Assembly: GCF_018350175.1 (NCBI RefSeq)
Contig: NC_058380.1
Coordinates: 45,756,001 to 45,820,000 of the forward strand
Direction: 5' to 3'
Length of the DNA: 64,000 nt
Source of the DNA: Felis catus
Lineage: Eukaryota
Shown here: positions 1,875 to 60,600 of the stretch, in pieces
Numbering within the stretch: position 1 is the first letter of the stretch
How the letters are laid out: every line of letters begins with the position of its first letter
Position numbers and translations under genes: made by a program
The notes under the pieces: model-generated
The model's input: the letters and a program-made list of their open reading frames with translations, nothing else
Database searches by the model: none
What the model was told of the DNA's origin: nothing

Positions 1875-2368
1875 TTAACTAAGGGAAGAGTGCACTTCAG
1901 TTTTCTTTCTGACAACTTCCTAGTCCTTCAGATGGGGAATGATGCCCTGGAAGAATCTCTGGACAGCAATATCCCCATAGGACAGGGCTGAAGGATTTCT
2001 ATATTCAGCCTTTCCTCCATGAGTTCCTGGTTTGGTGGTTAAGGCTAAAGGGTAGATTTCTCCAGGAGGATCTTCCTCTAAACTAGCTGTGTCTCCATAC
2101 TGAGCCGACTGAAGATATGCTGGAGAATCTGATAGCAGAAACAGAGATCTTATGCCTTCTGGATTTTGATGATATCTCTACTTTCCTCAGGAAACTTGAA
2201 TTGGATTCTGGCATTCCAACCTAATTTATAGGCATTGCTTTTCAGATGCCTGAAAAGAATGCAGGTGTCCTTATGTTCCAGGCTTTGGCTCCAAAATCAT
2301 CGCGAACCAAAGGAACAGACCTAGCTACCGCTGACCATCACCATTGCCGTCTGCAGAGACCAGGAGTG
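1875..2368 (-). pseudogene. IFN-delta-like pseudogene
   Basis: Manual minus-strand translation gives MVMVSGS*VCSFG..QSLEHKDTCILFRHLK..RIQFKFPEESRDIIKIQKA*DLCFCYQILQHIFS..IAVQRFFQGIIPHLKD*EVVR. This carries IFN-delta-type FKFP/CF.YQ.LQ motifs with several stops. Degenerate IFN TATA-like tgtttaagag at ~2418-2427. Confidence 0.75.
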
Positions 2369-2399
2369 GAGAATTTCTCAGCTTCACCTGGACCACAGT

Positions 2400-2730
2400 G
2401 AAACCGCAGGTTGCCAGCTCTTAAACAGCGCGCCCCAGGCCCCCTCGCTACGCCCCAACGGCCAGAAGTGGGCGCTCGAACTCAACGTAACGACCCAACC
2501 GGCATCTCCCACCAGCGGAACCTGCCAGGGCGTCAAACGCCAGGTCCCGCGGAAGCCGCAGCTTCGCAGGCAGCGGGAGCCCCTCCCGGGAGAGGCGCCG
2601 CCGGAATCCGGGACAGGGTGGGGCCGCGAGGACAGCGAGCAGACCCCTCCCTAGTCGGGCCTGACCGCCGAGGGGGAGCTGAGCCGCACTTCGCACCGAG
2701 CCTTTCATGTTCATGGTCGGCCCCTGCGTG
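2400..2730. promoter_or_regulatory. CpG island upstream of the left IFN-delta-like pseudogene
   Basis: Dense CpG and high GC against AT-rich flanks; paralogous to the CpG-rich region at ~38260-38800. Confidence 0.7.
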
Positions 2731-3634
2731 GATCCTCTCCTTTGTCGAGCAGTGTTTCAGCCAGAGCGGTTTACAAAGGGCTCATTTCCTCGGGATGCGG
2801 GGCAGGACTGAAATTGCACTTCGTGGGGTATGTTTGCAGATCCAGGATTGTTTCTGGGGGAGAAGGACGGGAGGTCAGGGAAAGGCAGTAGGCATCTACA
2901 GTCTGGACACGAATCAATATGTATGATTTTATTGAAATGTAAAGGTTACTTTTTCCTGCAACGTTAAACTGTTGGAAAAATATTGACCAGTAGGTGTATT
3001 AAAACTCGGATTATTTTAACGTTTAATATTTTATGTATGCCAAACCCAGAATTTATCATTTCCTGGGCTTCGGTGAAAGCAAACTCATGAATCATTTTCA
3101 GAACTAACTATTTTGCTCAATTTATCTTCATTTGAGAGAGTTGCAGTCTGAGAGAATTTAACGTTAGTACTGAAACGGTATTTGGAGAAATAGCATACAC
3201 ATGTTTAATTTACATTAATTCTTTTCTCCATCTTTCCCTAACTCATTTCCACGTTCCAGGTGATGTTCTTTTCCCACAGTTTGAAAATACGATTTTATGG
3301 CAGGCCATTATTTTGATAATCTTTTCTTCGGCTGAAAACAGTGATAACTGTCTTGTTGGCACATTTTTAGGCTCGGTCTCCATTTTGACTAAATCAAAAT
3401 TTTCATCAAGTGCTTCTCTATGCATTGAGACATACACTTCACCATCAGAGGTAAGTAAGCAAGTCATACTCCTTTCTGGCAGTGTCATGTGAATAGTGTT
3501 CGGGAAATTTAGCAAGTAAATGAACTTGAGTTTCTTGGACAAAAAAATGGGGAGACCAAATGGAATTTGTCAAAATCGAACTTGGCTGCCCCCTTCACCC
3601 AACTTGTACAACTCTCAGGCTTTTGTAATTCAAG

Positions 3635-3795
3635 GCCAGATCTTGTCTTTATTTAAAATTTTGATATTTTGTTCATCAGGGATTTTTTGTCATTAACTTT
3701 TGTTGTTAAGAATGTTGCCTTGAAACATTTCTTCATTACTAAGTCATTTGACACCCCCTTTCAGGTTGTGTGTGAGGCAAGTTCCTAACTCACCC
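3635..3795 (-). mobile_element. MER96B-like hAT DNA transposon remnant
   Basis: tctttatttaaaattttgatattttgttcatcagggatttttt...gacaccccc resembles the reverse of the recalled MER96B core; a paralogous copy lies at ~34930-35100. Confidence 0.6.
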
Positions 3796-5134
3796 AAACC
3801 GAATGGCCACACTGGAAAGAGTTTTTGATGTGAAGCGTTGTGATTTTCCTTGGCTGAAAATTATGTCTGAAAATCAGAGAACATCCCCTTTCCCATCTCT
3901 CTCATTTTATATTTACATATAAATATATATATATTTTTTCTTACAAGTTGTCTTTGTCTTTTTACCATTGTTTTACCTGTACCTTAAAGATTGTCACCAC
4001 AGGTGGCCTGAAACTAAGCGAAGATGCCGGAAGAGATTATTTATGTCAGCTACTTACGCGTTTCACAGAGTAGCTGTAATTTGCCAGACATCTTGCTGAG
4101 GTTCGGGTTCTCCAGAAAGAGCTTCATATGTGCTCTGCTGTAACAACGTAGGCTGGGCTTTGCTGCTTCACTAGGGAACCTCTCGTGCCCAGGGCTCCTG
4201 GGCACGAGAGGTTCCCATTTGGGAAGCGGGACTCCCCTGTTCATTAAGCTTAACAACAACCGTGGAATTGTCCAATAGTCGAACTATGTCGCACCCGAAA
4301 TACAAAATTAGGTCCATCTGTGTGAACCGCCATAGAAAGATTGCCAGGATTGTTCTGCAGAACTCCATGTTATATAGAAGCTATACAGTGATGCCTTTGG
4401 TATACGCTTATACAAGCGGATCCAAAAAACACATTGGTTCTTGAGTACCAGCTAAATGCTAAGCACTTAATGCTGGTGATCGAGCAGCGAGTCCTGGTTG
4501 TGCAAGGCGATAATAAACAACTGAGCCAAAAGTCATAACATAGACTAAAGGAGTATGCCTGGGGAAAGAAAGGCAACTTTCCCAGCTGGAAAGTTCAACG
4601 GATTCACCTTGAGAAACCTTTTTCACTATAACAGGAAAGGAGGAGAGGAGGCGTGGGGTACAATTTTTTTTTTTTTTTTAGTTTGGCGAAGAGAAATTCT
4701 CTTCTGGTGGCTTCTGCTTCCTGTGGCATGTGATGCATGCGTTGAGGTTGGGGAAATAGAAGTTTGTCAAAGTGGAGAACGTTGGAAATAGTTAAGGACA
4801 GGAGACTTGACCATGGAACAGTGATACCAGGTCCCAGGAGCAGGGAGCAATGTCAGTCTTGTTCACTCGTGTCTCTTAAATGCACTGAGAAGGAACTTAG
4901 CCAAACAGGTGGGATGAATGGAAGTCCGAACTCCAGGTAGTAGTGGAGATGTCCCTTAGCTGGAGACTGTAGGACTGTGGTGGCACAATATACTTGCCTG
5001 GGTGATCTTATCTAGCGAGTCTCAGCCAGATCAGGTGCGGGGAGACGCAGAGGGTTTGGTCTTTTGCCTGATAGGAATGATGAATCAAGAAGGAGGTGAG
5101 GGTGTTTAGAATGTTGCTTCAGTCATGGTCCGTG

Positions 5135-17400: not shown

Positions 17401-18069
17401 TTATTCATATGCCGAAATTTAAGTTTACTACGAAAGAAATTCAAGCTAATAAAAATATTCATAAAGGGAAGAATAGAGGGGAAACGCACAAACATTGCTG
17501 GTGACCACATTTTGGGAACATTTTTATATGTCTTGAGTCCCATCCTTAGGATTTATCCAAAAACGGGGGAAAGTTTTGTGCCTAGATTTTATAAGTTTAT
17601 TAGAGACTATAAAAGAATGAAGTACAAGAAGTTATATATATTCAGGAACAAATAATGGGCAAAGGAAACTATAGTATGTATATTCATTGGAAAGTTGTAT
17701 AGCCACGTAAAGATGTGTGAGCGGGAAACAATTACTGATGATGGAATTGCATTCTGAGGACAAAATTTAGGCTACGTTATTCACATAGCGGGGTTACAGT
17801 TTGGTTACTCAGAGACACACGATGTATGTTTCAAGTGATTAGTAATTTGAAAATATGAACCCAAGTTATAATTGAGGTGTTATTATGTTGTGCCGGATAG
17901 AAATCACAGCTAACGTGCTTTCTTGAGGCACAGTGTTAAGCATCTTCCTCCTCCGCCCCCTCTACTGCCCCATTTCTTTTCAATTCATACAAAAGCCGCA
18001 TTTCATTGTTATTCCAAAGGCAGAAGCCAGGAAGTACAAATCTTAAAGAAAAAGTACGAATTGAGGAGG

Positions 18070-18610
18070 AGAGCTCGGAGGCCGCGACACGTTTATACCA
18101 CACGCGCGGCGTAACATTCGGTCACCCGTTCCGGCCCATTGAATCCCACCCACGCAGCGACCCAGAGAGGCCCGGCTCGCGGCCACACCACACCCCTCCT
18201 CCTCCCCAACCCCCGCCCTTTGCGTCTCCCCCGTCCTTCCTCCCCATCCCCCATACGTCCGCCCACTGACGAGGTCGGACGGCTGCGCAGCCGCAGTAGC
18301 TACCGCGGCCGCTCCTAGCCCTGGGGATCCTGGGACGAGGCCTTTCCGGAAGGAGCGGCTCGGCGTCCGGGGCTAGGCCCTTGTTCCAGGCCCGGGCTCA
18401 AGCCAGGCCCTCGTTCCAGGCCCTCGTCCTAACACAGCTCTCCGTAGCCGCCGCGACGCTCTGGTGACAGCGGAGGGCGCCGCGGGCCGCTCGCTGAGGT
18501 GGCCGGCCTCGCCGCCAAGCGAGCCGCAGTACGTGGCGGCGCCTCCCCCTTGGCCCGGAGCGGAACTGCTGGAGGAGCGGCAGCGCAGGCCGGACGGACC
18601 AGGTGAACCG
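18070..18610 (+). promoter_or_regulatory. KLHL9 CpG-island promoter / 5' UTR
   Basis: CpG-dense; GC box ccccgccc at ~18211 and ETS palindrome ttccggaa at ~18344, directly upstream of the KLHL9 ORF. Confidence 0.85.
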
Positions 18611-18868
18611 GGTCACTTAACAGCCTTCTGGTGATGAATCATCTGCGTGACAGTCAGATTTGAGGTCCACAGCCCTTTGTGGTCCTGCTATCGGACAGTT
18701 TTCAGTGGATGACTGACTGGTGTGATCTGAGGGGTGCCGCAGGGACTGCTTGCCCTTGATAAGGAAAGCGAGCTCCCCGGCTCTTTGGACGGCCTCGTTT
18801 CCTTGAAAGCTTTCAGATTATAACTTCTTTCTCCGGCACAGATCTGTGCAAAAGGAAGGCTTTCACAC

Positions 18869-20722
18869 ATGAAAGTGTCTCTTGGTAACGGCGAAATGGG
18901 CGTCTCCGCCCATTTGCAGCCTTGCAAGGCAGGAACCACACGTTTTTTTACCAGCAATACTCACAGTTCGGTGGTATTGCAAGGCTTTGATCAGCTTAGA
19001 ATAGAAGGATTGCTTTGCGATGTGACACTGGTACCGGGTGATGGAGATGAAATCTTCCCCGTTCACAGAGCTATGATGGCGTCTGCCAGCGATTATTTCA
19101 AGGCTATGTTCACGGGGGGAATGAAAGAACAAGATCTAATGTGCATTAAGCTTCATGGGGTGAACAAGGTTGGTCTGAAGAAAATAATTGATTTTATTTA
19201 TACTGCAAAACTTTCTCTTAATATGGACAATCTTCAGGACACGCTTGAAGCTGCCAGCTTTTTACAAATCTTACCTGTTTTGGACTTCTGTAAAGTATTT
19301 CTTATTTCGGGAGTCTCTTTAGATAACTGCGTTGAAGTTGGACGAATTGCTAACACCTACAATCTCATAGAAGTGGATAAGTATGTCAATAATTTCATCC
19401 TGAAGAATTTTCCTGCATTATTGAGTACTGGAGAGTTTCTAAAACTCCCTTTTGAACGGCTTGCCTTTGTGCTTTCCAGTAATAGTCTTAAGCACTGTAC
19501 TGAACTTGAGCTCTTCAAGGCTGCCTGTCGCTGGCTAAGGTTGGAAGACCCTCGGATGGATTATGCTGCAAAATTAATGAAGAATATTCGATTTCCATTG
19601 ATGACACCACAGGATCTCATCAATTACGTGCAGACAGTAGATTTCATGAGAACAGACAATACCTGTGTGAATTTGCTTTTAGAAGCTAGCAATTACCAAA
19701 TGATGCCATACATGCAGCCAGTGATGCAGTCAGATAGAACTGCCATTCGATCTGACTCGACNNNNNNNNNNNNNNNNNNNNNNNNNNNNNNNNNNNNNNN
19801 NNNNNNNNNNNNNNNNNNNNNNNNNNNNNNNNNNNNNNNNNNNNNNNNNNNNNNNNNNNNNNNNNNNNNNNNNNNNNNNNNNNNNNNNNNNNNNNNNNNN
19901 NNNNNNNNNNNNNNNNNNNNNNNNNNNNNNNNNAGTAATTATGACACGAAAGGAAAGACTGCTGTCGATACAGTTTTCAGATTTGATCCTCGGTATAACA
20001 AATGGATGCAGGTTGCATCTTTAAACGAAAAGCGCACATTCTTCCACTTGAGTGCTCTCAAGGGACATTTATATGCTGTTGGTGGGCGCAGTGCAGCTGG
20101 TGAGCTGGCCACAGTAGAATGTTACAACCCAAGGATGAACGAGTGGAGCTATGTTGCAAAGATGAGTGAACCGCACTATGGCCATGCCGGAACAGTGTAT
20201 GGAGGCTTAATGTATATTTCAGGAGGAATTACTCATGACACTTTCCAAAATGAGCTTATGTGTTTTGACCCAGATACAGACAAATGGGCACAGAAGGCTC
20301 CAATGACTACAGTCAGAGGTCTGCACTGCATGTGTACAGTTGGAGACAAGCTCTATGTCATTGGTGGCAATCACTTCAGAGGAACAAGCGATTATGATGA
20401 TGTTCTAAGCTGTGAATACTATTCACCAACCCTGGACCAGTGGACTCCAATTGCTGCNNNNNNNNNNNNNNNNNNNNNNNNNNNNNNNNNNNNNNNNNNN
20501 NNNNNNNNNNNNNNNNNNNNNNNNNNNNNNNNNNNNNNNNNNNNNNNNNNNNNNNNNNNNNNNNNNNNNNNNNNNNNNNNNNNNNNNNNGCATAAAGTTT
20601 TTGACCTTCCAGAGTCTCTTGGTGGCATTCGAGCTTGTACTCTCACAGTTTTTCCACCTGAGGAAAACCCTGGGTCACCTTCTAGAGAATCACCTCTTTC
20701 AGCACCTTCAGATCATTCTTAG
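18869..20722 (+). CDS. KLHL9: Kelch-like protein 9 (BTB-BACK-Kelch CUL3 adaptor), intronless, 617 aa including two N-gaps
   Basis: [44 protein letters not shown]..., BTB ([21 protein letters not shown]), BACK and Kelch GG..Y..W repeats; KLHL9 is the known non-IFN gene inside the type I IFN cluster. Confidence 0.97.
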
Positions 20723-22653
20723 GACTAACATGTAATACCTTTACAGCGCATCATGGATGATCGCACACTTCCCCTTCAGTTGTTATCTTCTTACAGCGAT
20801 TGGTACAGTTAATTAGATAAGTGGTAACTGATGTTATTTGTATTGTTTGGCTTAGTGTGTTTATCATATGGTTAACAAATGTATTCTGAAAATGTATTCA
20901 ACATAGCCAGCTGTTTTAACAGATGTAAGAAGATAGGTAGCGAACTGTTTTAGATGTCTTTGTGGCGTTGTGTAAGTCAAATTGTAGGTGATCGTAGTAA
21001 ATGTGTAACTGTGTTCATTATGCTTCAAAGTGGAGAGTTTTCATCTTTGACTTCGAAACATCAAAGGGAGGCTGCCTGCTCTAACCTAAAATAAAAGGTC
21101 GCCAAATACTATTACCTACGTCCCTTTTTTCATATAGTTTTTGACATCGTTGCCAATTCACCAGATCATGTGAGTGCATTCAGAGTATGTGAAGTTTCTT
21201 AGAAATAAACAGTAAAGCCCTAAGTCAGGGTTTTGTATTTCTCTCAGAGAGGGAAAGGGAGAGAGAAAATATAAGCTCGTGTGCTCACACACACGCATAC
21301 ATACATGTGTATATACGTTCGTATGTCCACACATAGGCACATCTAATTTTTAAATTGATATTTCATCTGTAGGGAAATTGTTTTTAAATTAATTTTTTGT
21401 TCTACCTAGCAGCTATGTATATTCAAATGGGAATTCAGTACCAGAGAATAAGTGTCTGTACTGAATAAGAGAATAAGAGTCATACTAAATTGAGACAGAT
21501 AAGGGCTACAACATATTAAATTGACCACCAAATTTGTCATTTGACTAAATTGTCACTTCAGGTGAAACTTCTTTTACTTCTTCTGCTTGTGAATTCTGTG
21601 GAGTTGCTTTTATACAGGTTATTTAGCAAAGTTCAGGTTTCCGAGAATTGGTTTAGCTGAGTAAATGTAAGCTGTGCTATTTTCTACCTTTTTATTCGGT
21701 AAAACTTACATGAAGACAGCTGAGAAAGGAATATGCTGAACAAAACTACAGGATTTTAAGTTCGGTTTCCCAACTTAGTCATTCTAACATGATCATTTGA
21801 TTTGGGGTGGTTGCTCCAGCTTTGTGTGATCTGCCTCAAGGCTGTGATTTGAGCAGGAGAGATACAGTCAGTTCTGTGTCGAATCAGAATAATGTCCTTT
21901 TGGCTATGTCTAAAGAACAGGACCAACTTCAGATTCCCTAAGAAGCCAGCTACAGAAAGCTTAGGACTCTGCTGTCTTTCAGGCAGTACTAAAGTCGATG
22001 TTAAGCCTTTAAAATACCAAGGGCATCCCTCCTGGTTGCGAATCACATGGGGAGATCCTAGTGAGACTTTTTCAGCAAAAGGAGTCCTCTTTATGTAGTG
22101 AGTGATTCTGGAGAGGTACTTTCCTAGAATAATTGCCTACCCGAAGAAAAAATTTACATATGTACTTTGACATACATATGAATATGTATATCCCTACACT
22201 TGGGAAGTTGTCATAGTATAAACCAGGAACAATCTTTTTATTGACAATCCCATAATAAAACTCAGGAACCAAGACAAGAGGAATTGGCTTCCAGGGATCT
22301 GAACCTTACTGCCCATACAAGTGTTGATTCATTTTAATGCTTTTTATGATTTCTGCATTGGCAGAAAATTTCATACTTTCTATGTTTTTTTAAATGACTA
22401 ATTTTTTATTACTAAAAGTAGCACATTGAGTACACTTAGAAAATAGAGAAAGTAGAAATTGATGTAAACTTTGTGCATTGAATAAGCAAGAAATGGCATC
22501 CCAATCATTTCTTTATTAATAAGGTTAAATATTTGTGTGGTTTCTTTTGAGTAGCTGTGTTTCCTGTGTTTGAATGTTCATGTCTTTTACCCTTGTGATG
22601 ATACCTATTGGAGTTGCTTTGTTTTTTCATACCAAGTTATAGGCTCTCTATAT

Positions 22654-28759: not shown

Positions 28760-29030
28760 TTTCTTTTTCTTTTTCTTTTTTTTTTTTTAATGTTTATTTT
28801 TGAGACAGACACAGCGCGAGTGGGAGAGGGGCAGAGAGAGAGGGAGACACAGAACCTGAAGCCGACTCCGAGACACAGAACCTGAAGCCGACTCCGAGAC
28901 ACAGAACCTGAAGCCGACTCCGGGCTCCAAGCTGTCAGCACAGAGCCCAACGCAGGGCTGAACTCATGAACTGTGAGGTCATGACCTGAGCTGAAGTCAG
29001 ATGCTTAACTGACTGAGCACCCAGGCGCCC
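28760..29030 (-). mobile_element. Can-SINE with internal 26-bp triplication
   Basis: SINE body; gagacacagaacctgaagccgactcc x3 at 28844-28921. Confidence 0.9.
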
Positions 29031-32924: not shown

Positions 32925-33470
32925 CCAACTTCCCGGGTTTTCTGATGAGCTTCTTAATACAGAGAAAGCACTTCTTGATTTCCGCTTCTGAATTTCCAGT
33001 CTGACAACGTCCCGGGCAGGGCAGCTATGTACTGTCTTGCCAGAGAAGACTGATTCTTTGCAACTAGCTCCCCACAGGCAGGCTGGCGTCCTCGTTGCTC
33101 GGGAGGGTCTTTTCCTTCCTCATCTCCTGCACCGAACTGGTCACCGGGTCGTCCACCTTCTCATCGAGTCCAGTGAGCACTTTCAGCGGTTCGTGCTGGA
33201 TCGTCGTGAAGTTGGATCATCATCTCCTGAAGACAGAGGTGGCCTGAGCTCTTTGGAACCGGCTGCCACGCACCTGCTTCTGGGGAAACCTGAAAATGTT
33301 CTCGGTCCTCCAGGCACGACAGCAAGGATGATCCTCCCCACATACTGCAGAACTGTGACGGTCTCCAGCGTGGGCAGGCCACGGTTCTGGGCGAGGTCGC
33401 CGCGGAGGGTGCTGACAGAGCTGGAGAGCATCGTCTCCAGTGTCATCATGAAGAGGCTGGCAGGCCCCAG
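32925..33470 (-). pseudogene. Minor-class type I IFN pseudogene (IFN-chi/mu-like)
   Basis: 23-codon signal starting at CTG (lost ATG), then GDLAQNRGLPTLETVTVLQYVGRI/SLLSCLEDR/FRFPQKQVRGSRFQRAQATSV..LTGLDEKVDD..SNEDASLPVGS*LQRISL..DVVRLEI/EIKKCFLCIKKLIRK; frameshifted. IFN identity is clear; the subtype is inferred. Confidence 0.8.
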
Positions 33471-34929
33471 GCGGGCGTGATGACGCGCAAGTCCACCCGG
33501 GGGAGACTTTACCCAGCTGCTCTGAACACCTTGCACACGAGGTTCTTCATTAGGCCGGGACTGCCGCCTCGGTTCTTATCCCGATCTTCTTTCCACTTTT
33601 TGTCGGGGCTTCAGACCACGTCACGACCTCAACACTTCCTTTGTATTGTGACGCTGCAGATCAAACACACGCATGGAAATCCTAGAAGTCTCAGTCCAAT
33701 AGGATACGTTCACCTAAATGAGACCCCAGGTTGAAGTAAAAACCCGACTCTCCGTCCATGTCTGTTTTTCAATTCTAAAAAGAACGCTCAGTGGTTTGAT
33801 CCAGGTACCATTCTTCCACTTCTCCAAATGCACTCGAAGACAACTTGCCCCAACCCTCTGCATTTCCCTTGTAAGGGGCTCTCCATTAAGTTTGAATTCT
33901 CCCCTATCTCTTTACAGGAGACATGGCTCATATATTCTGACACAGTCTGAAGATAATAGAGGCATAAAGGTGAACTTCAAGGGTTAACTCACAGAGTTCT
34001 CTGCATCCTGTCCCCCAGAAGGTGCCGCCTGCACAACACGTGGAAGGCAGTGTGTGGCCATGTGGACTCACAGAAGGCAAGACAGGGATGGTGACTGCCC
34101 TCCAGGGAACAAGGAAGGCAGACATTAAAGGCATGGTTCAGATTAATGAGGCACCAGCACAGTCAGTGCAGCTAAGGGCACGTACTAAGAGCTGAGGAAG
34201 AGGACGGACTGGAGGGCGGCAGAAAGCCCCACTTTTGAAGACACCTGTGGCTCCGGAGGATAAATGACACCGGATTTTCATCTCCTCCTCAAAAAGAAGT
34301 GGAGACATTAGTAGTGGTCACACAGGAAAGTGTAAAGACTAAATGAGATAAAGTTTGCAAATTTTAGGCTGATCACAGATGAGAGTCCACCTGACCGCAG
34401 TAAATGGTCGCTGCCTGCAGGGCTAGTAGGACATCCAATGCTGGGTAGAGTCCACACTCAGCCAAACCAGCTCAAGCTTTCAGTGAAGCTCCCTTAACAC
34501 CCTCAGGGGTGTGCATGGGGAGCCCCTCCCCTCACCCTGGACACTCCTGGAGAGGGCAGTGTCTGCAGGACCGTGAAGGAGCAGAGCCCAAGTTTCCCCT
34601 CTGGGGTCAGTACCTGGAACACAAAGGAGAGAGATCTCACAGCGCAAAGAAGGTCTTTGCGGGGAACCAGCCTCTTGAAAGTTGTCTGACAGAAATGGCT
34701 GCTCTGTGAATAGTATAAAGTGGTCAGAGCTCCTTCCCTCAGGCTCACTCACCTTCAGACCACTTCTGGTGATAGTTTGAAGGCACAGTGGAGAAGACAA
34801 AATTTGTAGAAACGAGGAAACCAGTTTTAAAAATTATGAAGGAGAGGGTGATGAGAAATGGGACATTCCTAGATTTTCAGCCATTGAAATTCACAGCCCT
34901 AATTCAAAAGCTATTTCTTGGGTCAGTAT

Positions 34930-35100: not shown

Positions 35101-35656
35101 GTGCAAGTTCCTGAGTCTTCAAAGGAGCCACAGTGCATATGAAATTTTGGCAAATTCCATTCAGTCTAGGAATTTCTTGCCAAAGAAAATACAAAGATCT
35201 CACCTGCTAAATGTGCTGAATGCTTGTGCACAACACCAGCCTTCCTCTTTAACCATAGAGTCAAGTTGGAATACGGGGAGAGATGTTTCATTAACCAGGA
35301 GTTAAATAAAAATGACATGAAGTTTGTCAGGGAGACACAAGAAATTGTCAAACGTACAGTTCTACCAACTGAAAAGAAGAAGTAATCTCCACTATATTAT
35401 TGAGTTTGTTTCCATCAATGGTGGAAGAGTAAAGTTATATTCAATTGTGTGCATTCAATCCCACTGCAAAAAGTTAACAAAAATAGCGGTTGAATATCTT
35501 AATATGAGAATGTTTAATATCTTATGTCTAATATTTTAATGTAATATTTACTATGAAATACGTCATGGTGACCCAGTTGACGACAGTGCTGTGCGAGATT
35601 CTCAATTCCTCCTTTGCAAAGTGCAATCTGTTGACGCCTGCGCACCGACTTCCGGG

Positions 35657-38260
35657 TGGCCAATGTTGCTAGAAGTCAGCAGAACGCTAGTGGGCGCCAC
35701 ACTTCCTCACAAAGAGGATCCAGATGCTGGCGGCGCGCGACTGGCTCCCAGGACTGTATCAGCGCTTTGGTCCAGGAGCGTTCCATTGCCCCATCGCCCC
35801 ATAGTCCCATCGTCCCATCGCCCCATCGCCCAATCGTCCCACAGTCCCGTCGTCCCTTGATTCCGACGCTGGCCAATGTTGCCAGAAGTCAGCAGAAAGC
35901 TACTGGGCGCCCGACTTCTGACAGAGAGCATCCAGATGCTGGCGGCGCGCGACTGGCTCCCAGGACTATATCCGTGCTTTGGTCCAGGCACCTCCGATAG
36001 TCCCATCGCCCCGTCTTCCCATCATCCCATCGTCCCATCGCCCCATCGCCCATCGTCCTATCATTCCATCGCCCTGTCGCCCCATCGTCCCAAAGCCCCA
36101 TCGCCCATCGTCCCACCGCCCCACCGTCCCAAAGCCCCATCGTCCCATCGCCCCATCGTCCCATAGCCCCATCGCCCATCGTCCCATCGTCTCATCGTCC
36201 CATCGTCCCATCGTCCCACAGTCCCGTCGTCCCTTGATTCCGAGGCTGGCCACTGTTGCTAGAAGTCAGCAGAACGCTACTGGGCGCCCGACTTCCTTAC
36301 AGAGAGCATCCAGATTCTGGCGGCGCGCGACTGGCTCCCACGACTGTATCCGTGCTTTGGTCCAGGCGCGTCTCATCGCCCCATCGCCCCATCGCCCCAT
36401 CGTCCCATCGCCCCATAGTCCCATCGCCCCATCGTCCCATCGCTCCACCGTCCCATCGCCCATCCTCCATCGGCCCATCGGCGCATCGTCCCATCGTCCC
36501 TTCGTCCCATCGTCCCATCGTCCCACAGTCCCGTCGTCCCTTGATTCCGACGCTGGCCACTGTTGCTGGAAGTCAGCAGAATGCTACTGGGCGCCCGACT
36601 TCCTCACAGACAGCATCCAGATGCTGGCGGCGCACGACTGGCTCCCACGACTGTATCCATGCTTTGGTCCAGGCGCGTCCCATCGCCGCATCGCCCCATC
36701 GTCCCACCGCCCCATCGTCCCATGTTCCCATCGCCCCACCGCCGCACCGTCCCATCGCCCCATCGTCGCTTCGTCCCATCTTCCCATCGTCGCATCCTCC
36801 CATCGTCCCATCGCCCATTGCCCATCGTCCCAACTTTCCATCGCCCCATCCTCCCATCGTCCCATCGCCCCATCGTCCCAAAGCCCCATCACCATCGCCC
36901 ATCGTCCGATCGTCCCATCGTCCGATCGTCCCATTGCCCCATCGTCCCAAAGCCCCATCGCCATCGCCCATCGTCCCATCGCCCCATCGTCCCACCGTCC
37001 CATCGCCCCACCGCCCCATCGTCCCATCGTCCCATGTTCCCATCGCCCCATCGTCCTATGTTCCCATCGCCCCACCGCCGCACCGTCCCATCGCTCCACC
37101 GTCCCATCGCTCCATCGCCCCATCGTCCCATCGTCCCTTCGTCCCATCTTCCCATCCTCCCATCGCCCCATCGTCCCAAAGCCCCATCGCCATCGCCCAT
37201 CGTCCCATCATCCCACCGTCCCATCGCCCCATCCTCCCATCGCCCCATCGTCCCATCGTCCCATCGTCCCATCGCCCCATCGTCCCATCGCCCCATCGTC
37301 CTATGTTCCCATAGCCCCACCGCCGCACCGTCCCATCGCTCCACCGTCCCATCGTCCCATCGCTCCATCGCCCCATCGTCCCATCGTCCCTTCGTCCCAT
37401 CTTCCCATCGTCCCATCCTCCCAAAGCCCCATCGCCCATTACCCATCGTCCCCTCGTCCCAACTTTCCATCGTCCCATCGTCCCATCGTCCCACCGTCCC
37501 ATCGCCCCACTGCCGCACCGTCCCACCGCCCCAAAGCCCCATCGCCCATTGCCCATCGTCCCATCGTCCCAACTTACCATCGCCCCATCGTCCCATCGCC
37601 CCATCGCCCCATCGTCCCAAAGCCCCATCGCCATCGCCCATCGTCCCATCGTCCCATCGCCCCACCGCCGCACCGTCCCACCGTCCCATCGCCCCATCGC
37701 TCCACCGTTCCATCGTCACATCGTCCCTTCGTCCCATCTTCCCATCGTCCCATCCTCCCATCGTCCCATCGTCCCAACTTACCATCGCCCCATCGTCCCA
37801 TCGTCCCATCGTTCCATCGCCCCATCGCCCCATCGCCATCGCCCATCCTCCCATCGTCCCATCGCCCCATCGTCCCATCGTCCCATCGTCCCATCGTCCC
37901 ATCGTCCCATTGCCCCATCGTCCCAAAGCCCCATCGCCATCGCCCATCGTCCCATCGTCCCATCGCCCCATCGTCCCATCGTCCCATCGTCCCATTGCCC
38001 CATCGTCCCAAAGCCCCATCGCCATCGCCCATCGTCCCATCGCCCCATCGCCCATCGTTCCTTCGGTCCATCGCCCATCGTCCCATCGCCTCATCGTCCC
38101 ACCGCCCCATCGCTCCATCGTACCATCGTCCCATCGTCCCACAGTCCCGTCGTCCCTTGATTCCGACGCCTGATCACCCCGTCGTCCCATCGCGCTAACG
38201 TCCCACTGTCCGTTCATCCCATCGCTCCATTGCCCCCTCCTCCCACCCTCCCATCTTCCT
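35657..38260. repeat. Composite VNTR: 4 x [~120-bp header + (CCCATCGT/CCCATCGC)n + 29-bp linker]
   Basis: Headers at 35657, 35870, 36247 and 36554; linker acagtcccgtcgtcccttgattccga(c/g)gc at 35841, 36218, 36525 and 38141. Confidence 0.95.
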
Positions 38261-38560
38261 GCCTTCGGGCCCTGTCCTCCGTTCCCTCTTACCCCCAATC
38301 CTGTCCCAGCCGGTCTCGGCCGCGGCCTCAGGCTCACATGCCACCCTAGGCTGACAGGGCGATTCAACGCGCTCACGTGGGTTCGGAGCCTCCAGTTCGT
38401 TTAGGAAACGATTGTTGGAAAAAATGGCCCGGCTGCACTCTCGGCGCAAAAGGAGAGTTCGGGACACAGGGAGCCCAGAAAACTCAAGGTCCACGCCTCC
38501 CTACCCGTGGAGGATGTTCCTGGCGGAGGAAGCACAGAGGAGGTGCCCGCCAGGCGCTAA

Positions 38561-38597
38561 GGGCGGGGAGAAGCAGGGCTTTGCGGGGACTATAAAA
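38561..38597 (+). promoter_or_regulatory. GC box plus TATAAAA in a CpG-rich region
   Basis: gggcgggg at 38561-38568 and tataaaa at 38591-38597. Confidence 0.4.
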
Positions 38598-38810
38598 GCA
38601 GCACACAGTTGGCGCCCACAGCGCCTCAGCCCTCGCTTTGCCCTGGCGCTCTTGGAAGGGCTCAGCCTGGAGTCCCCCGAAGCTGCCCAGAAGCTGCCCC
38701 GACGCTCCCCTTTCTGTTTCAAAGTCACAGCTTCTTTGCCCTAAAGCCACTTCCGAAAAGGACGGCCGCGCGCCACCTGCCGGCCGCCTGGAGAACCACC
38801 GAAATCGTCA

Positions 38811-39300
38811 ATTGCCCAGGTCTGTGGTTAGCCAAGCTCTGCAGCATCCCTGCCTGCTCCCTTGCTGGAGACCTGCCTTGGCTCCAGAGCCCAGGAAACA
38901 GGGACATCCTCCTACTTTTGAGACAGTTGAAAAGGAGCCCCTCTCACACATGCCTGAATGACAGAACCTCCTGATTCAGGCTTCCTTGGGAAAGAGACTG
39001 TATCGCCCAAGTGCAGAAGGCACAAACCACCTGTTTCCACCATCAGATGCTCCAGCAGATCTCAGCCTCTTCAGTACAGACAACGGCCGCGCTGCTAGGG
39101 GCGACGCCCACCTCCTTACTCTCCCGTCTAACCTGGATCGCAGCCTGGAACACCTGGAGCCCCCGGAAGAAGACAACCCGGCCCGTGTTTGGGAATTGTG
39201 GCCTAGAAGTATTTCTAAAGCATCCATCTGTATATGAAGGAAAAGACACACAGTCGCTCTACCTGGGTAGCAGGTGAGAAATATCTGAAACCAAAACCGT
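38811..39300 (+). pseudogene. IFN-delta-like pseudogene
   Basis: ATT-GCC-CAG (lost ATG of MAQ..), then LCSIPACSLAGDLPWLQSPGNRDILLLLRQLKRSPSHTCLNDRT/FRLPWERDCIAQVQKAQTTCFHHQMLQQI/SLFST..LDRSLEHLE../LGIVA*KYF*SIHLYMKEKTHS..W. The F.(F/L)PW motif and short C-D loop are IFN-delta hallmarks. Confidence 0.85.
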
Positions 39301-44394: not shown

Positions 44395-44480
44395 GAGAAT
44401 GCAAAATGAAAACCAGAAAACAAAAGTAGGAAGAAGAGGAGATTCAGAAAATGGAAACTAATGTGTTCCCATTTAGGAGG
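44395..44480 (+). promoter_or_regulatory. IFN-alpha virus-response-element region (GAAA repeats) with a variant TATA position
   Basis: gcaaaatgaaaaccagaaaac..cagaaaatggaaacta..cccatttag. Confidence 0.7.
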
Positions 44481-44571: not shown

Positions 44572-45153
44572 ATGGCGCTGCCCTCTTCCTTCTTGGTGGC
44601 CCTGGTGGCGCTGGGCTGCAACTCCGTCTGCTCTCTGGGCTGTGACCTGCCTCAGACCCACGGCCTGCTGAACAGGAGGGCCTTGACGCTCCTGGGACAA
44701 ATGAGGAGACTCCCTGCCAGCTCCTGTCAGAAGGACAGGAATGACTTCGCCTTCCCCCAGGACGTGTTTGGTGGAGACCAGTCCCCCAAGGCCCAAGCCC
44801 TCTCGGTGGTGCACGTGACGAACCAGAAGATCTTCCACTTCTTCTGCACAGGGGCGTCCTCGTCTGCTGCTTGGAACACCACCCTCCTGGAGGAATTCTG
44901 CACGGGACTTGATCGGCAGCTGACCCGCCTAGAAGCCTGTGTCGTGCAGGAGGTGGGGGAGGGAGAGGCTCCCCTTACGAACGAGGACATTCATCCCGAG
45001 GACTCCATCCTGAGGAACTACTTCCAAAGACTCTCCCTCTACCTGCAAGAGAAGAAATACAGCCCTTGTGCCTGGGAGATCGTCAGAGCAGAAATCATGA
45101 GATCCTTGTATTTGTCAACAGCCTTGCAGAAAAGATTAAGGAGCGAGAAATGA
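44572..45153 (+). CDS. IFNA: Feline interferon alpha, 193 aa, intronless
   Basis: [23 protein letters not shown]|[36 protein letters not shown]; NTT glycosylation site; IHPED insertion; ATTTA-rich 3' UTR at ~45356-45390. Confidence 0.96.
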
Positions 45154-46330: not shown

Positions 46331-47961
46331 AGAATGGGCATTGGGAATTACGTGAAGTTTTTTTTTTCTCCTGCAGAGTTCTCCGTTTTGCGCTATGTGT
46401 GTCTCTGGATAGATACATGGATTGGATGTATTGGCAAATCCTGTTCATATGCTTAATGTTGTGTTTATTTTAAAGCATGGCACCTTTCATTCCTTACCAT
46501 GATAATCTATTATCATTTTGATGCGTACTATGCGGAAGGTCAGGAAGCTGTTCTGTGGACGGAAACCATCCAGTATGTGGGGAAGCAGATGGAACTGACC
46601 TTAGCGAGGGCTGGGTGGAATTCGCAAGCAGGCACCACAGTGAGCAGGTGGAAGGTGGTAGCAGAAGCCAAGGGCTCCCGCTGGCTTCCCCTCACCTGGG
46701 AGCCACCCTAGTGTTTCCATGGCCTTCACGGTCAGATTTGCCTTTGATTTCCTGGTGCCTCGGTGCATCCCAATGCCGTGACAGCTTTCTAGGAAAGCTG
46801 AGTGGAGAAAGAAAAAGATGCTGTATCAAAACTGATGGGAAATAATGGTAGGGGCCCTTCCCGTTTTCATTCTTGCTTCCCTCTTTTGGTACTGACCTCA
46901 AGATGAAGTAGAAAGGAATTCAGAAGAGAAGTCCACCCGTGCCTATAAAATTACTAAATTAAAAAGAACATATACAATTAAAAAAACTCCAAGCTAGTAA
47001 AGAAAGGGGTTAGTTTTCTCTAGTATGTGGCCTCCCTGCTCCACATCTTGGCTGTGAGATGGATCACGATGAACCAAATAGCTCAGGAGAAAAGAACTGA
47101 CTCACTAACCCAGGAAGCCTTATCAGTTACTTCAGTGCAAGCCTCCAGCAGCAGGAAAATCAACACTGAGTCCCCTGCGGCCTCAGAAACTGAGAGCATG
47201 AGAAGGACTCCACAGGTTAATAGACTGAACTCCACATAGAAATCAACATTTAGCAAAATAAAATTCCTGTTGCTACTTAAGGTTACAAAAAAAAAAAAAA
47301 AGGATCGTTTACCCACACCAGTGCCCCCTACACACACGAAGTGCAGAACGTTTGTGTCCTCTGGAAGCTATGGAAAAATCTGACTCTTGAGCACCTGACA
47401 GAAAGAGAAGGAATTGGTCACAGAAACAAGCCTGGGTCGCGGACAGTTGATTATTTGGGGGACAAAGCAGCCACCCTCCAATAAAATTTTGCTCAAAGCT
47501 GGAAGTTTGATGAGCTGACTCCTGGCGGCCAGTTACAGAGAAAGAGAGAGTGAGCGAGGGGAGCCAGGTGTCACACACAGGGCTATGGGCACGCTGACCC
47601 AAAGGGACCAGGCATCTTGACTGATGCGCAAAAAATAAAAATCACAACCACAGAGCTCAGGCTCGGAGGTAAAAGTATGTCCTGAGCAAGGAGAACAACA
47701 GCTACCTACTTTTGATCGTAACACAAAAGATTTCCGTCGTTTGAAAGCTTTGGATCCCTTTACGCTGAAACATTTGAAACACTGCGGCAAATTAAACTTC
47801 ACTGAAATAGTGAAATGAGTAATTCATAGGGTTAATGTTTTCTGATCTAATCTACTCTAATCTAAGGCTTACATAAAGAAAGGAACAAAACTTAAGAAGA
47901 ATAAAACGTATACAGGAACATTCAGAAAATGAAAACGGTTTTGTATTAAAAGACATGCGGA

Positions 47962-48195
47962 GGGGCGCCTGGGTGGCACAGTCGGTTAAGCATCCGACTT
48001 CAGCCAGGTCACGATCTCGCAGTCTGTGAGTTCGAGCCCCGCGTCAGGCTCTGGGCTGATGGCTCGGAGCCTGGAGCCTGTTCCCAATTCTGTGTCTCCC
48101 TCTCTCTCTGCCCCTCTCCCGTTCATGCTCTGTCTCTCTCTGTCCCAAAAATAAATAAAAACGTTGAGAAAAAAAAAATTAAATAAAAAAAAAAA
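47962..48195 (+). mobile_element. SINEC_Fc inserted in the promoter/5' UTR of the IFN pseudogene
   Basis: TSD aaaagacatgcggag at 47948-47962 and 48192-48206. Confidence 0.95.
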
Positions 48196-48289
48196 GACAT
48201 GCGGAGAAAGAACTTGAGAGGAACTAGGGCCCAAGACGCCCCCCTCGCTCGTCACCCAGGCCACCAGACCCCTCAGGTGCCCAGCGCGC

Positions 48290-48820
48290 ACCCCCTCGGC
48301 GGGCCTCCTGCTGGATCCCTGTGGCCGCATCTCCTTTCTGGGCTCTGACCTGCCTCCCGGCCAAGGGCGGCTTCACAGGAAGACCTACTGCTTCTGACAC
48401 AGATCAGGAGGACGTCTCAGTTCTCTTGACTGAGGGGCATCTCCCCCGGGGAGAGGGTGGGTGGCTGCCAGTTGCAGGAGGCCCAGGCCACCTCTGTCCC
48501 CAGGAGCTGCTCCGGCAGACCTTCTAAGTTCCTCACAAAGTGCCATCTGCTGCCTAGAACCCGATCCTGCTGGACAAACTGCCCGGGGCACCGGGGACAG
48601 CCGGAACCCAGGACACCTGCCTCAAATGCACACACCCAGACACTCCTGCAAGAACCTTTCACTAGAGGACAAAAGTTCCATCCGGGGACTTCATCTCAGT
48701 CTAAAGAGAAGCAATGGAGTGATTGTGCCTCTAGAAAGATGCCTGAGTGCAAATCACGTGATCGTTGTCTGCATATTCAAATTCGTAACAATTAGTAAGG
48801 AGGAAGGAAGGAGACCCCAA
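48290..48820 (+). pseudogene. Heavily degraded type I IFN pseudogene (omega-like by upstream flank)
   Basis: LGSDLPPGQGRLHRKT/LLTQIRRTSQFS*L..VGGCQLQEAQATSV/QELLRQTF*..SAA*NPILLDKL..KEKQWSDCA; IFN-type promoter remnant (ttcagaaaatgaaaac at ~47921) and 3' aaatgattctc. Confidence 0.8.
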
Positions 48821-53670: not shown

Positions 53671-54255
53671 ATGGCGCTGCCCTCTTCCTTCTTGGTGGCC
53701 CTGGTGGCGCTGGGCTGCAACTCCGTCTGCTCTCTGGGCTGTGACCTGCCTCAGACCCACGGCCTGCTGAACAGGAGGGCCTTGACGCTCCTGGGACAAA
53801 TGAGGAGACTCCCTGCCAGCTCCTGTCAGAAGGACAGAAATGACTTCGCCTTCCCCCAGGACGTGTTCGGTGGAGACCAGTCCCACAAGGCCCAAGCCCT
53901 CTCGGTGGTGCACGTGACGAACCAGAAGATCTTCCACTTCTTCTGCACAGAGGCGTCCTCGTCTGCTGCTTGGAACACCACCCTCCTGGAGGAATTTTGC
54001 ACGGGACTTGATCGGCAGCTGACCCGCCTGGAAGCCTGTGTCCTGCAGGAGGTGGAGGAGGGAGAGGCTCCCCTGACGAACGAGGACATTCATCCCGAGG
54101 ACTCCATCCTGAGGAACTACTTCCAAAGACTCTCCCTCTACCTGCAAGAGAAGAAATACAGCCCTTGTGCCTGGGAGATCGTCAGAGCAGAAATCATGAG
54201 ATCCTTGTATTATTCATCAACAGCCTTGCAGAAAAGATTAAGGAGCGAGAAATGA
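53671..54255 (+). CDS. IFNA: Feline interferon alpha, 194 aa (IHPED-insertion type), intronless
   Basis: Complete ORF with signal peptide, conserved cysteines and [13 protein letters not shown]; AU-rich 3' UTR at ~54453-54490. Confidence 0.97.
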
Positions 54256-57669: not shown

Positions 57670-60600
57670 TGTGCTACTGGGGCGGCGACCAAAACTGGGG
57701 GAAGGGTTTGGGATGCATGCAGAAATTCGACTTCTTCCTGAAATTGTCCCTTTAAGCTACGACTTAAAGGACTTAAAGGACTCAAATATTCAAAATATTA
57801 AATATTCAAAAGTTTTGGAGAACTTAGCTGCAGGGCCAGAGGCGCTGGCCAGGGGATTGAGCCCCCACCAGCCAACTTTCCATCCCCAGGCACTTCTGGC
57901 CCACCTGACAGGGGACACGGAGGAGGCAGGGCCTGTTGCCAGGTGCCCACTGATGGGCTTGGCAAGATCACTTGCAGCAGCAGCGGAAGCAGCCAACGTT
58001 CTCCGGCTTCAGAAGTCAGAGTGTGCATCGGGCCATAGCTCCACCCTCTGCCGGCTGATTGCTGGGCTGCGGAGGTCAAGGCCCCCAGATGCCCAGTCCA
58101 GCACAGAAACACAAAACTCGGGGAACCCTGCCCACACATCCACACCCAGGCGCTCATCCGGGCCTGTGTTTGGGCATGACTGCGTTCTGATTACAGGTGC
58201 AAGAGGCTCGTTTCTTCAAAAAACCGCAGCTGCACATCTGAAAACGTAAAGGTGTCGAAAGTCCGCAGCCACTGGCGAACATGGAAGGAGAAGAGAAATG
58301 TAAAAGGGTCCGTGGGATCAGTGACATGTCCTCAGGGGGTGGAACAACACCAAAGGGCAGCACTGAGGCCAGACTCTCCAGATTCTTCAGTTCCGGACCC
58401 TGAGAAGATTCAAGTGGACATTGGGAGCACAGACTTCTCCTGTGTGGACGTGGCCAATAGCAGTGTCCCCAGCAGGGGTGGCGATGACATCACAGCAGCC
58501 TGCAGGGTATTGGCAGGGAGGGGGGGCTACTCCAGTGCCAGATGCAAACTTCTGTCTCAACTGGCAGAAAAATCTACTGCCTTATGACTATTTAATAGGG
58601 ATTTTGTCAACTTGTCCTTAGAATGTCAAGTCAGTCCATTTAGGTGACTCATACCACAGCCCCTGTTGCCTTCCAAAACATAGACGACAACCCTTTGGCA
58701 TCTGAAGTGGAATTTGGAATCCTTGATCACCTCACCCTCCCTGCCATACTGATTTCATGCCCTAGCCTTTCCTGGTTCTGAATTCCAATGTCCATTTCTA
58801 TCCTTCGTTCCCTTAAGAGGCGCTTCCAGACAAGTCATTACCTCAATTCTCCTTACGGTTTTGACCTTGGATCTTTCGTCCCATCAGGATAATTTATTCC
58901 TCCAGATTTATATTCTCTCTAAACCGTTGTATAAACGACTGCGATCCCAATGGTTCCATTGAGAAGACTGAATTCATAATTTCAAAGATCTTAGAATAGT
59001 TAGCATCCAGTCAACCCCGGTGTTATCATCATAAAACATCATCATCCTTATTATTATGCAGATGAAGAGCAGAATCTTTTAGGACCATCCAATTCCCTTT
59101 CTCAGGGCAATACTGCCATTGAGTGAGTGGCTATCTTAACGAGGTAGCGTGCTCAGGCAAGGCAAATATCTGTGATCCTGATCCTTCCACACGGGGTTAG
59201 CAGGTGGGGTCTGCTTGCCAGTCTCTTGTGAGCTGGTTGATGCCACCCCTGTCGTCTCTCCTCAGAGCTGATCATATGTGGATTAAGTGAAAGCAAAATC
59301 AGGTGGCTGGTCTTGCAGAGCTGAGGGCCGTCCATGGATCCAGGAGTTGGTCTTCTCTGAGGCTCTGGCTGACACACCTCTTTTGCTGATTTGGGGGAAC
59401 TCAGGGTGGCCTTCGTTCTCTCTGCCAGAGCTCCCAGTCCCCGGTTCTGCTGCACCGAATCGTGCTCACTTACGTTTTGTCAGCAGAAAGGTCACTTCTT
59501 TCACTTTCGTGACACTTGGACTTAACCTTTGTGAGGTTTTTGTTTGTTTGTTTGTTTGTTTGTTTGTTTTTGCCCATGCAGAACTGTCATGTTTTGCTTT
59601 CTAGGAAAGTTGAAATGGGAAACAACACAACTGATGTTTTGAAAATGATAGAGAAAAATGGGGCAGCCCCTTGGCCTTTCTTTAACTTCCCTTTGTATTA
59701 ACCTCAGGATGATGTAGAACACGACGCAGGAGGAGGAAGACAGACTATGTCACCACTGTGTAAAAACTAAGTTATTAGAATTCTTTTTGTTGTTATCTTC
59801 ATTTATTTTAAAATGAAAGATCACGAATAAATAAAGGAAAAAAGACATTTCTCTCTGACATAACAGCCTCGGCCTCACCCCCTTCATTCTGAGCATGAGA
59901 GGGAGGAACAGACTAAGAAACTAAACAGAAATACCTAGACTGAATGAACACCTGAGAATCGCTAGTTTCTGTGCTGAAAGCTTCCACTGAGAGACATCAT
60001 CAGTGAGTCCGAGCCCAGCTCAGAAGTTTTGAGTCTAACTAGTGTTCAATGATTGAAGTAAAAGATTGAACAATAAAAGCTATGGTGGCAAAATAAAAGT
60101 ATTTGCTTACCAAAGGTGAAATGATTACAGTTGGGTCACTCCCCTCCTTAGAGGAAACAAACTTTTGACCTTGGCATCTGAGAGCTGTTGACACTTTGAT
60201 ACCTGCTCAGGAGAGGAGGAGGTCAACACTGAGAGCTAGGGTCCCTCACAGAAACAGTCCAGGGGTAGAGGGAAGGAATGAGGGGCATTAACTCTTTTGC
60301 TAACAAAGAAACCAGCCCCTCCACAGCAGAGGAATTCTAATGTCCTCAGGACAAGGTGAGCCTGCCCTTAGGGAGTGAGTCCAGGAGAGGCTGGGTTGAG
60401 GACACTCAGTCACTCCAGAGGAACATGTTAGTAGAGGTGATAATAACCTTGCGAGTGAGGGGTTGCTGAGAAAATAAAATGATCTGGGATTAGAATCTTC
60501 ACAGCTACACGTCCCAGACCAGAAGCGGGCTTCCTGCTGGGGACACTGGCACAGCCTGAGGAGCACTGTAGACGGGTTACAAAATGGCAGAAGGATAGTG

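Follow-up and report, generated by a model that had tools for sequence, protein, structure and literature searches.

How did a CpG-rich header followed by a block of octamers come to stand four times over among type I interferon (IFN) genes, and does the resulting array act on those genes? We addressed this question for a composite tandem array at 35657..38260 of a 64,000-nucleotide stretch of Felis catus DNA (assembly GCF_018350175.1, contig NC_058380.1, positions 45,756,001 to 45,820,000, forward strand), hereafter called the window. A first-pass annotation, made from the letters alone, had seen in the array a promoter-like module multiplied together with an expanding minisatellite, and a possible copy-number-variable element for an IFN-alpha gene. 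Its observation was confirmed and its interpretation was partly supported. What was copied is a two-part unit: some 125 bp of 5' flank, followed by a minisatellite that ends four units into an eroded tail. The array is probably a flank-inclusive four-fold duplication of a locus-specific 8-bp CpG-island minisatellite beside an IFN pseudogene, mostly a passenger of repeat turnover and near-neutral.

A two-part unit in four copies

The headers start at 35657, 35870, 36247 and 36554, with header-to-header spacings of 213, 377 and 307 bp. A 29-bp linker stands at 35838, 36215, 36522 and 38138, and linker 4 follows linker 3 by 1616 bp. The annotated periods of 213, 377, 307 and 1616 bp were thus recovered, with headers and linkers at the positions claimed, and the near-invariance ascribed to the linker proved to be identity in all four copies. 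Each of five header and linker motifs occurs exactly once per unit; four of the five have just four occurrences across the 64-kb window, and the short gggcgcc motif has 14. Tandem Repeats Finder (TRF), which had been proposed as a check on the periodicity, reported periods of 8 bp (188.8 copies at 36676-38156), 212 bp and 307 bp. No further header copy was found in the window, either by BLASTN or with an nhmmer profile of the four headers.

All parts of the array are given on the plus strand. Header 1 (35657..35781) abuts the unique 5' flank and is the most diverged copy, set apart from headers 2-4 at 8 of 22 variable columns. It is followed by octamer block 1 (35782..35869), which consists of 7 units and four eroded terminal octamers (35838-35869). 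Header 2 (35870..35993), which has a 1-bp deletion relative to the other headers, precedes block 2 (35994..36246; 28 units plus terminal octamers at 36215-36246). The CCAAT motif is lost from header 3 (36247..36371) and from header 4 (36554..36678). Block 3 (36372..36553) has 19 units and terminal octamers at 36522-36553, and block 4 (36679..38169), G-rich on its minus strand, has 186 units with multi-unit internal duplications and terminal octamers at 38138-38169. By this segmentation the blocks hold 240 core units of the CCCATCG(T/C) type in total; 224 of the 240 are 8-mers, and 126 of these 224 are perfect. Compared as paralogues on one haplotype, block lengths of 7, 28, 19 and 186 units show past instability.

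The linker had been annotated as a separate third component. Together with the next 3 bases, it instead reads as four degenerate octamers in array phase, matching at 23 of 32 bases (0/10000 shuffles). Downstream of unit 4, a single-copy tail (38170..38241, plus strand) adds nine further degenerate octamers in phase, with 56 of 72 bases matching and a shuffle mean of 29.7 (0/10000). Because the linker and the octamers after unit 4 stay in phase with the array, we conclude that the linker is the eroded 3' edge of the minisatellite.

Minisatellites are head-to-tail arrays of units of roughly 6-100 bp that extend over 0.5 kb to several kb. The array has head-to-tail units, interspersed variant units and higher-order internal duplications (0/1000 shuffles), and is a minisatellite in this sense. 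The longest repeated unit string in block 4 comprised 9 units, a length reached in none of 1000 order shuffles (shuffle maximum, 8). Furthermore, there were 25 identical rare-unit triplet pairs compared to a shuffle mean of 0.5 (0/1000). Both results lie beyond shuffles and bear out the recurring sub-blocks that had been described for this block. Its longest exact internal repeat is 76 bp, at 37882/37967, and a segmental copy of about 250 bp links 36938-37190 to 37167-37435.

Tandem GC-rich arrays pose difficulties for assembly, and block 4 may not have its true length here. That the array as such is an assembly artefact is nevertheless very unlikely: each header carries private substitutions, exact repeats in block 4 end at the above-mentioned 76 bp, the array contains no N run, and both flanks are colinear with a sister duplicon described below. 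Open reading frames (ORFs) of 156-530 codons cross block 4 on both strands and could be taken to encode a repeat protein, a reading that we consider next to impossible. Since the octamer is stop-free, frames stay open on either strand and in several registers; units of 5-7 bp shift the frame, and header 2 has a 1-bp deletion. Neither array ORF tested had a Pfam match, and no homolog was present among 128 candidates.

The header copies differ from each other at 7-14 of 120 positions (6-12%). Among their 22 variable columns, 8 split 1|234, 2 split 12|34 and the rest are private or three-state; no two-state 13|24 or 14|23 split occurs among them. This pattern suggests the branching order ((3,4),2),1. 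All three internal unit junctions fall at the identical base, and since they share it, we infer one founding duplication followed by homologous unequal exchange.

Two yardsticks were available for the age of the units. The coding sequences of the two intact IFN-alpha genes in the window differ at 11 of 585 columns, and the DXZ4 spacer divergence between domestic cat, jungle cat and leopard cat is 0.015 (PMC8662614). Because the headers differ at so many positions, the four-unit structure appears old; it would predate the splits of those cat species if rates are similar, and mutation beside repeats may run faster. The exact repeats and the segmental copy in block 4 indicate that the recent change was in octamer number in that block. 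On this evidence the variable part is likely the octamer count of block 4 and not the header number. The proposal of a copy-number-variable header module was not borne out, since the headers are 6-12% apart, several times the 1.5% of the DXZ4 spacer between cat species, and no recent unit gain can be seen on this haplotype.

A CpG island with a non-expanded sister copy

CpG islands are commonly defined by a GC content of at least 50% and a CpG observed/expected (o/e) ratio of at least 0.6 over more than 200-500 bp. The stretch 35541..39300 is an island by these values and the longest CpG-island-like run in the window (sliding 200-bp criteria). The array makes up 2.6 kb of this 3.8-kb island, which lies between two IFN pseudogenes.

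An inverted sister duplicon was found at 1924..4137 on the minus strand. It shares the AT-rich flank and an IFN pseudogene with the array locus, and it has a short CpG island of 0.6 kb (2261-2880) with no octamer array; octamer dimers were not detected anywhere in the duplicon. Both flanks align with 62% identity, one over 646 columns (E 1.5e-36) and the other over 383 (E 1.2e-20). The two pseudogenes, at 38816-39270 (+) and 2356-1924 (-), are mutual paralogues.

When header 1 with 32 bp of flank was compared to 2437 tiles of the window, the best non-self match was the sister island, on the expected strand, with a score of 133; the next score was 107, and 0/500 shuffles did as well. The match was weaker for header 2, for which 9/500 shuffles did as well. 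On balance, the header likely derives from ancestral island DNA. Neither the promoters of the three intact IFN genes, nor the 5' regions of three other pseudogenes, nor that of the array's own pseudogene matched any header significantly (73-497/500 shuffles; 7 targets by 4 headers). Homology between the 3' part of the island and the sister island was likewise not significant (32-189/300 and 53/300 shuffles).

The header might instead be a fragment of a dispersed repeat, such as a transposable element or a long terminal repeat, or a felid satellite unit from other loci. We consider such an origin improbable. Just four copies are present in the window, all within the array; the sequence shows neither a poly-A tail nor an insertion boundary, and on its 3' side the unit ends within the eroded octamers. 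The modest match of the header to the sister island also argues against it, and the unit sizes are unlike the monomer of the cat satellite FA-SAT. FA-SAT resembles the array as a CpG-rich cat tandem repeat with 64% G+C, but it is set apart by its 483-bp monomer, present in more than 100,000 copies (PMC5714208), where the array has four unequal 8-mer-based units. A 14-bp flanking direct repeat was considered as a target-site duplication and rejected: its 3' copy falls within the eroded octamers, and there is no poly-A. The translation of header 1 gave three protein matches (E values from 1e-9 to 7e-4, 3-4 stretches each), which were not used for any conclusion.

The array has a CpG o/e of 1.29 and a GC content of 0.64; the CpG o/e of the window is 0.46. 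In the octamers, CpG transitions were counted at 9 of 448 sites and other transitions at 49 of 1120, a ratio of 0.46 (0.47 with same-context variants collapsed). In six young short interspersed nuclear element (SINE) copies from the window, which served as control, the respective counts were 21/204 and 12/1131, a ratio of 9.7. The CpG share of substitutions was 7/96 in the octamers and 21/51 in the SINEs (Fisher p 2.8e-6). Unlike the nearby SINEs, the octamers show no excess of CpG transitions, and the simplest reading of the mutation spectrum is that the array has been hypomethylated in the germline over the long term. Methylation had been named as a possible ground for dismissing the array as inert; its sequence appears free of methylation erosion.

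Several points weigh against the history that we prefer, in which a minisatellite grown in island DNA was copied with its flank and drifts almost neutrally. Headers 3 and 4 alone did not match the sister island significantly (156/500 and 365/500 shuffles). Comparison of the header to the whole 1.2-kb sister interval was equaled in 14/300 shuffles, and an earlier scoring of the header-sister match, with a different alignment, in 47/1000. Moreover, the sister island was ranked first by only one of nine scanned segments, with ranks of 3-251 for the others. The header-like segment 2536-2385 (-), which matches 35631-35778 (+), immediately precedes the pseudogene in the sister duplicon, whereas here it is about 0.7 kb farther up once the array is collapsed; this shift may stem from an older local duplication or rearrangement. 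The headers are intermediate in their mutation spectrum, with CpG transitions at 4/88 and others at 6/411 (3.1-fold), three of the four being in header 4 and one column pair being ambiguous in the automatic CpG call. Repeat turnover can distort such a spectrum, the eighth octamer position was unscored, and the control ratio may be inflated by differences among SINE subfamilies. A direct repeat with 12 of 14 bases matching near both unit ends hints weakly at microhomology in the founding duplication; it was chosen post hoc and is matched or bettered by 56 of 3000 random island 40-mers. Finally, a single haplotype was analyzed, and neutrality is an assumption.

We nonetheless favor this history, which would have the following course. 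As its sister copy shows, the locus is one copy of an ancient duplicon that combined an AT-rich flank, a CpG island and an IFN gene. In the island of this copy, the unit CCCATCG(T/C) was amplified and its 3' edge eroded, as is visible in the array. As the unit structure indicates, a tandem duplication then took 125 bp of 5' flank, the short array and the four eroded octamers next to it, and left behind the NRF1-like and ETS-like sites described below; the 12/14-base microhomology at the unit ends may have contributed. Two more unequal exchanges, suggested by shared changes and identical junctions, would have led to four units in the above-mentioned order. The blocks would since have changed length independently, and the pattern in block 4 shows copying of multi-unit segments, presumably by slippage or conversion-like repair. 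An island largely unmethylated in the germline, as the mutation spectrum suggests, would allow the repeats to keep their CpGs. An effect on the intact IFN genes, if any, would be indirect, via an enlarged unmethylated or Polycomb-type island, and probably small.

The array as a candidate regulatory element

One part of the first-pass interpretation that stood is that flanking CpG-island DNA was copied along with the expanding minisatellite; a multiplied promoter module was not supported. A single-copy motif cluster lies just outside the duplicated unit (35632..35655) and consists of a TGACG half-site at 35632, an NRF1-like match at 35635-35644 (-), which has no second instance in the window, and an ETS-like CCGGAAG at 35649-35655 (-). 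The last corresponds to the acttccgg annotated just 5' of unit 1, which we located at 35648 as its sole plus-strand copy in the window. An NRF1-like and an ETS-like site within 30 bp of each other occurred in 0/5000 composition-matched simulations, with motifs that were picked after seeing the sequence. This pair may mark a real island promoter. Both sites are 5' of the copied unit and remain single. CCAAT was present in headers 1-2 and CCACT in headers 3-4, as described, so that CCAAT is kept in two of the four headers.

The virus-responsive element of type I IFN genes is built from IRF-binding GAAANNGAAA repeats, to which an NF-kB site may be added. With consensus motifs, no IRF-E, NF-kB or YY1 motif was found in the array (35657-38260). 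IRF-like sites were located at 44448 (loose), 53545 and 61171, each about 125 bp 5' of the ATG of one of the three intact IFN genes. The headers also have no CTCF-like core: their best matches had 3, 3, 4 and 3 mismatches, compared to 34 sites in the window with at most 2, by a crude comparison that used no weight matrix. A CTCF-like core with one mismatch to a 14-letter IUPAC core lies outside the array at 38770..38783 (-).

The nearest intact IFN-alpha ORF (44572..45153, plus strand), which has its own IRF-like site at 44448, starts 6.3 kb downstream of the array, in agreement with the annotated distance of about 6 kb. Nearer IFN pseudogenes had been missed, however. One of them, degraded, lies about 0.6 kb downstream (38816..39270, plus strand; tblastn E 6e-7), with an in-frame stop, frameshifts and no ATG at the expected place. 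The other is also degraded (tblastn); it lies 2.2 kb upstream in a CpG-rich run at 32961-33700 and is directed away from the array (32990..33463, minus strand). A GC box (38561) and a TATA-like box (38591), both motif matches only, face the downstream pseudogene from the island's unique 3' portion (38561..38596, plus strand). With this pseudogene in between, and with intact IFN genes that have IRF-like sites of their own, the downstream IFN-alpha gene was not supported as the natural target of the array.

These results bear on the proposal that the array is a copy-number-variable promoter or enhancer for the downstream IFN-alpha gene, in which headers add factor sites and array length tunes output. 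The locus is indeed a CpG island and is apparently unmethylated in the germline; NRF1-like, ETS-like and CCAAT motifs stand there within about 35 bp; and thousands of about 70,000 human variable number tandem repeats (VNTRs) associate with expression or methylation (10.1101/2020.12.16.423078). However, the NRF1-like and ETS-like sites are outside the copied unit and CCAAT is gone from two of the four headers; the array has no IRF or NF-kB motif, whereas the intact IFN genes have their own IRF-like sites; the headers have drifted by 6-12%, one of them with a deletion; and a pseudogene and a CTCF-like site stand between the array and the IFN-alpha gene. We therefore consider such a role unlikely. 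So far there is no sign that the array controls working IFN genes, and the human VNTR associations leave a little room for it.

The minus strand of the array is exceptionally rich in G-triplets, with 154 non-overlapping triplets per 1.5 kb at 36689 and a maximum of 38 elsewhere in the window. It also carries 37 of the 48 canonical G-quadruplex (G4) motifs of the window. An LG4 region is defined by a density of 121 or more G-triplets per 1.5 kb on a single strand (PMC7293029), which the array exceeds; G4 folding in vitro and overlap with enhancers and CNV breakpoints are further features of such regions. It might thus be a functional LG4 whose G-rich strand folds into G4s, drives instability and acts as a structural or enhancer element. 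This is doubtful, since of the 149 loops counted in block 4, 117 measure 4-5 nt and contain purines, unlike the short (at most 3 nt) pyrimidine loops that are most prone to trigger instability in yeast (PMC5491262). In addition, the mean G4Hunter-like score of block 4 is moderate (-1.29), and the density rule by itself shows no function. G4s may contribute to the instability of the array, though they are not needed for it. In their G-triplet density over more than 1.5 kb, LG4 regions resemble the array; they are defined in human only (PMC7293029), and the array has loops of 4-5 nt and is known here from motif counts.

A further possibility is that a CpG-preserving minisatellite of the felid lineage has about tripled an orphan island, and that the length of the mutable block 4 tunes chromatin state like a dial (size of the unmethylated or Polycomb domain, or G4 load) and so sets the inducibility of IFN-alpha and IFN-omega. 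We give this little credence. If it were true, antiviral responses would vary heritably among cats through CpG dose and not through multiplied factor-binding sites. If the length of block 4 altered methylation, H3K27me3 or induction of adjacent IFN genes, it would be a structural-variant source of antiviral variation in cats, which nothing here shows. As a passenger of repeat turnover, the reading we prefer, the array is probably a highly variable marker inside the felid IFN cluster. It also offers a worked example of how unique CpG-island DNA can give rise to a compound repeat, and the sister copy, which did not expand, serves as a control within the window.

Comparable systems and neighboring sequences

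The closest known systems are GC-rich minisatellites and VNTRs with variant units, such as human CEB1 and CEB25 and the eVNTR and mVNTR sets of Garg et al. (10.1101/2020.12.16.423078). The array shares with them the single-locus head-to-tail arrangement, interspersed variants and multi-unit duplications, as well as the eroded edge, the strong strand asymmetry and the location in a CpG island. It differs in that the whole array was duplicated with its flank to four units and in being known from one haplotype. Its 8-bp unit is below the 10-bp cut-off of the VNTR sets of Garg et al. Mouse Dxz4 likewise has few monomers diverged by more than 5%, length variation via an internal VNTR and a promoter outside the array (PMC3491370). 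However, Dxz4/DXZ4 has CTCF-bearing monomers of 3-5.7 kb beside PLS3 on the X chromosome (PMC3491370, PMC8662614), whereas the units here, in the IFN/KLHL9 cluster, are 0.2-1.6 kb (213-1616 bp) and have no CTCF-like core; the likeness is architectural only. No description of the array was found in the literature searched, which did not cover supplements; repeat catalogues in cat-genome supplements could hold one. The array is a real element of an ordinary kind, and one that had probably not been described before.

Judging by gene order, the sister duplicon (1924-4137) would be the likelier orthologue of the regions between human IFNA2 and IFNA8, and the array locus its inverted paralogue. Two hypomethylated regions with low H3K4me3 lie in this human interval, H3K27me3 covers it in monocytes, and CTCF sites are located near several IFNA genes (PMC3776951). 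A CpG island upstream of IFNA8 has also been tabulated (PMC2687719). The cat and human regions share CpG-rich patches away from intact IFN promoters, those of the window being paired on IFN pseudogenes upstream of an intact IFN-alpha gene; the portion of the human report drawn on here mentions no tandem array (PMC3776951). Because islands and hypomethylated regions are reported in the human cluster, orphan islands seem normal for this IFN cluster (PMC3776951, PMC2687719).

A further CpG island at 17981-18940 belongs to a gene that, from the context given at first pass, we take to be KLHL9. An ancient inverted duplication surrounds this KLHL9-like gene, with a second inverted match between 2-821 and 57875-59658 (64-75% identity). 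KLHL9 sits within the IFN cluster of cow, mouse, human and pig (PMC2680415, PMC4221479). CpG-island-like runs at 32961-33700, 47881-48360 and 61381-61860 lie over two IFN pseudogenes and an intact IFN-omega-like gene; the run at 47881 overlaps a young SINE in part.

Altogether, at least six degraded IFN-like sequences were found: 38816-39270 (+), 2356-1924 (-), 33463-32990 (-), 17080-16775 (-), 48263-48620 (+) and 21871-21945 (+). The one next to the array gave colinear, sub-threshold matches to the Pfam Interferon model (positions 5-32 and 34-63). Protein searches for its subtype with two stop-free pieces yielded 17 and 28 candidates, none of which scored, and the only IFN match in PDB was IFN-omega (E 0.84), ranked below an unrelated match. 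It and its paralogue at 2356-1924 may resemble IFN-delta. Perfect or one-mismatch matches to a CTCF-like consensus core are present at 25550, 57666, 17089, 48553 and 38783, all on the minus strand and several within or beside IFN pseudogenes.

Rfam gave no matches in the window, and none of the four stretches folded formed a hairpin beyond shuffles (DNA-parameter z-scores, -0.57 to +0.44). ARAGORN called five tRNAs, all outside the array; those compared with SINE alignments coincide with SINE copies. The intact IFN-alpha ORFs at 44572-45153 and 53671-54255 differ, besides the 11 columns given above, by one codon indel. Both lie within a 1.4-kb duplication of 85% identity, and their coding regions are more alike than the flanks, as gene conversion predicts. 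In the first, an ATG at 44461 lies upstream and in frame, and the IRF-like site and TATA region are less perfect than in the second. Two short tandem repeats were also observed: an 11-bp repeat of 3.3 copies at 38675-38710, in the same CpG island as the array and just 5' of the pseudogene, and a perfect 26-bp triplication in SINE-like sequence at 28844-28922.

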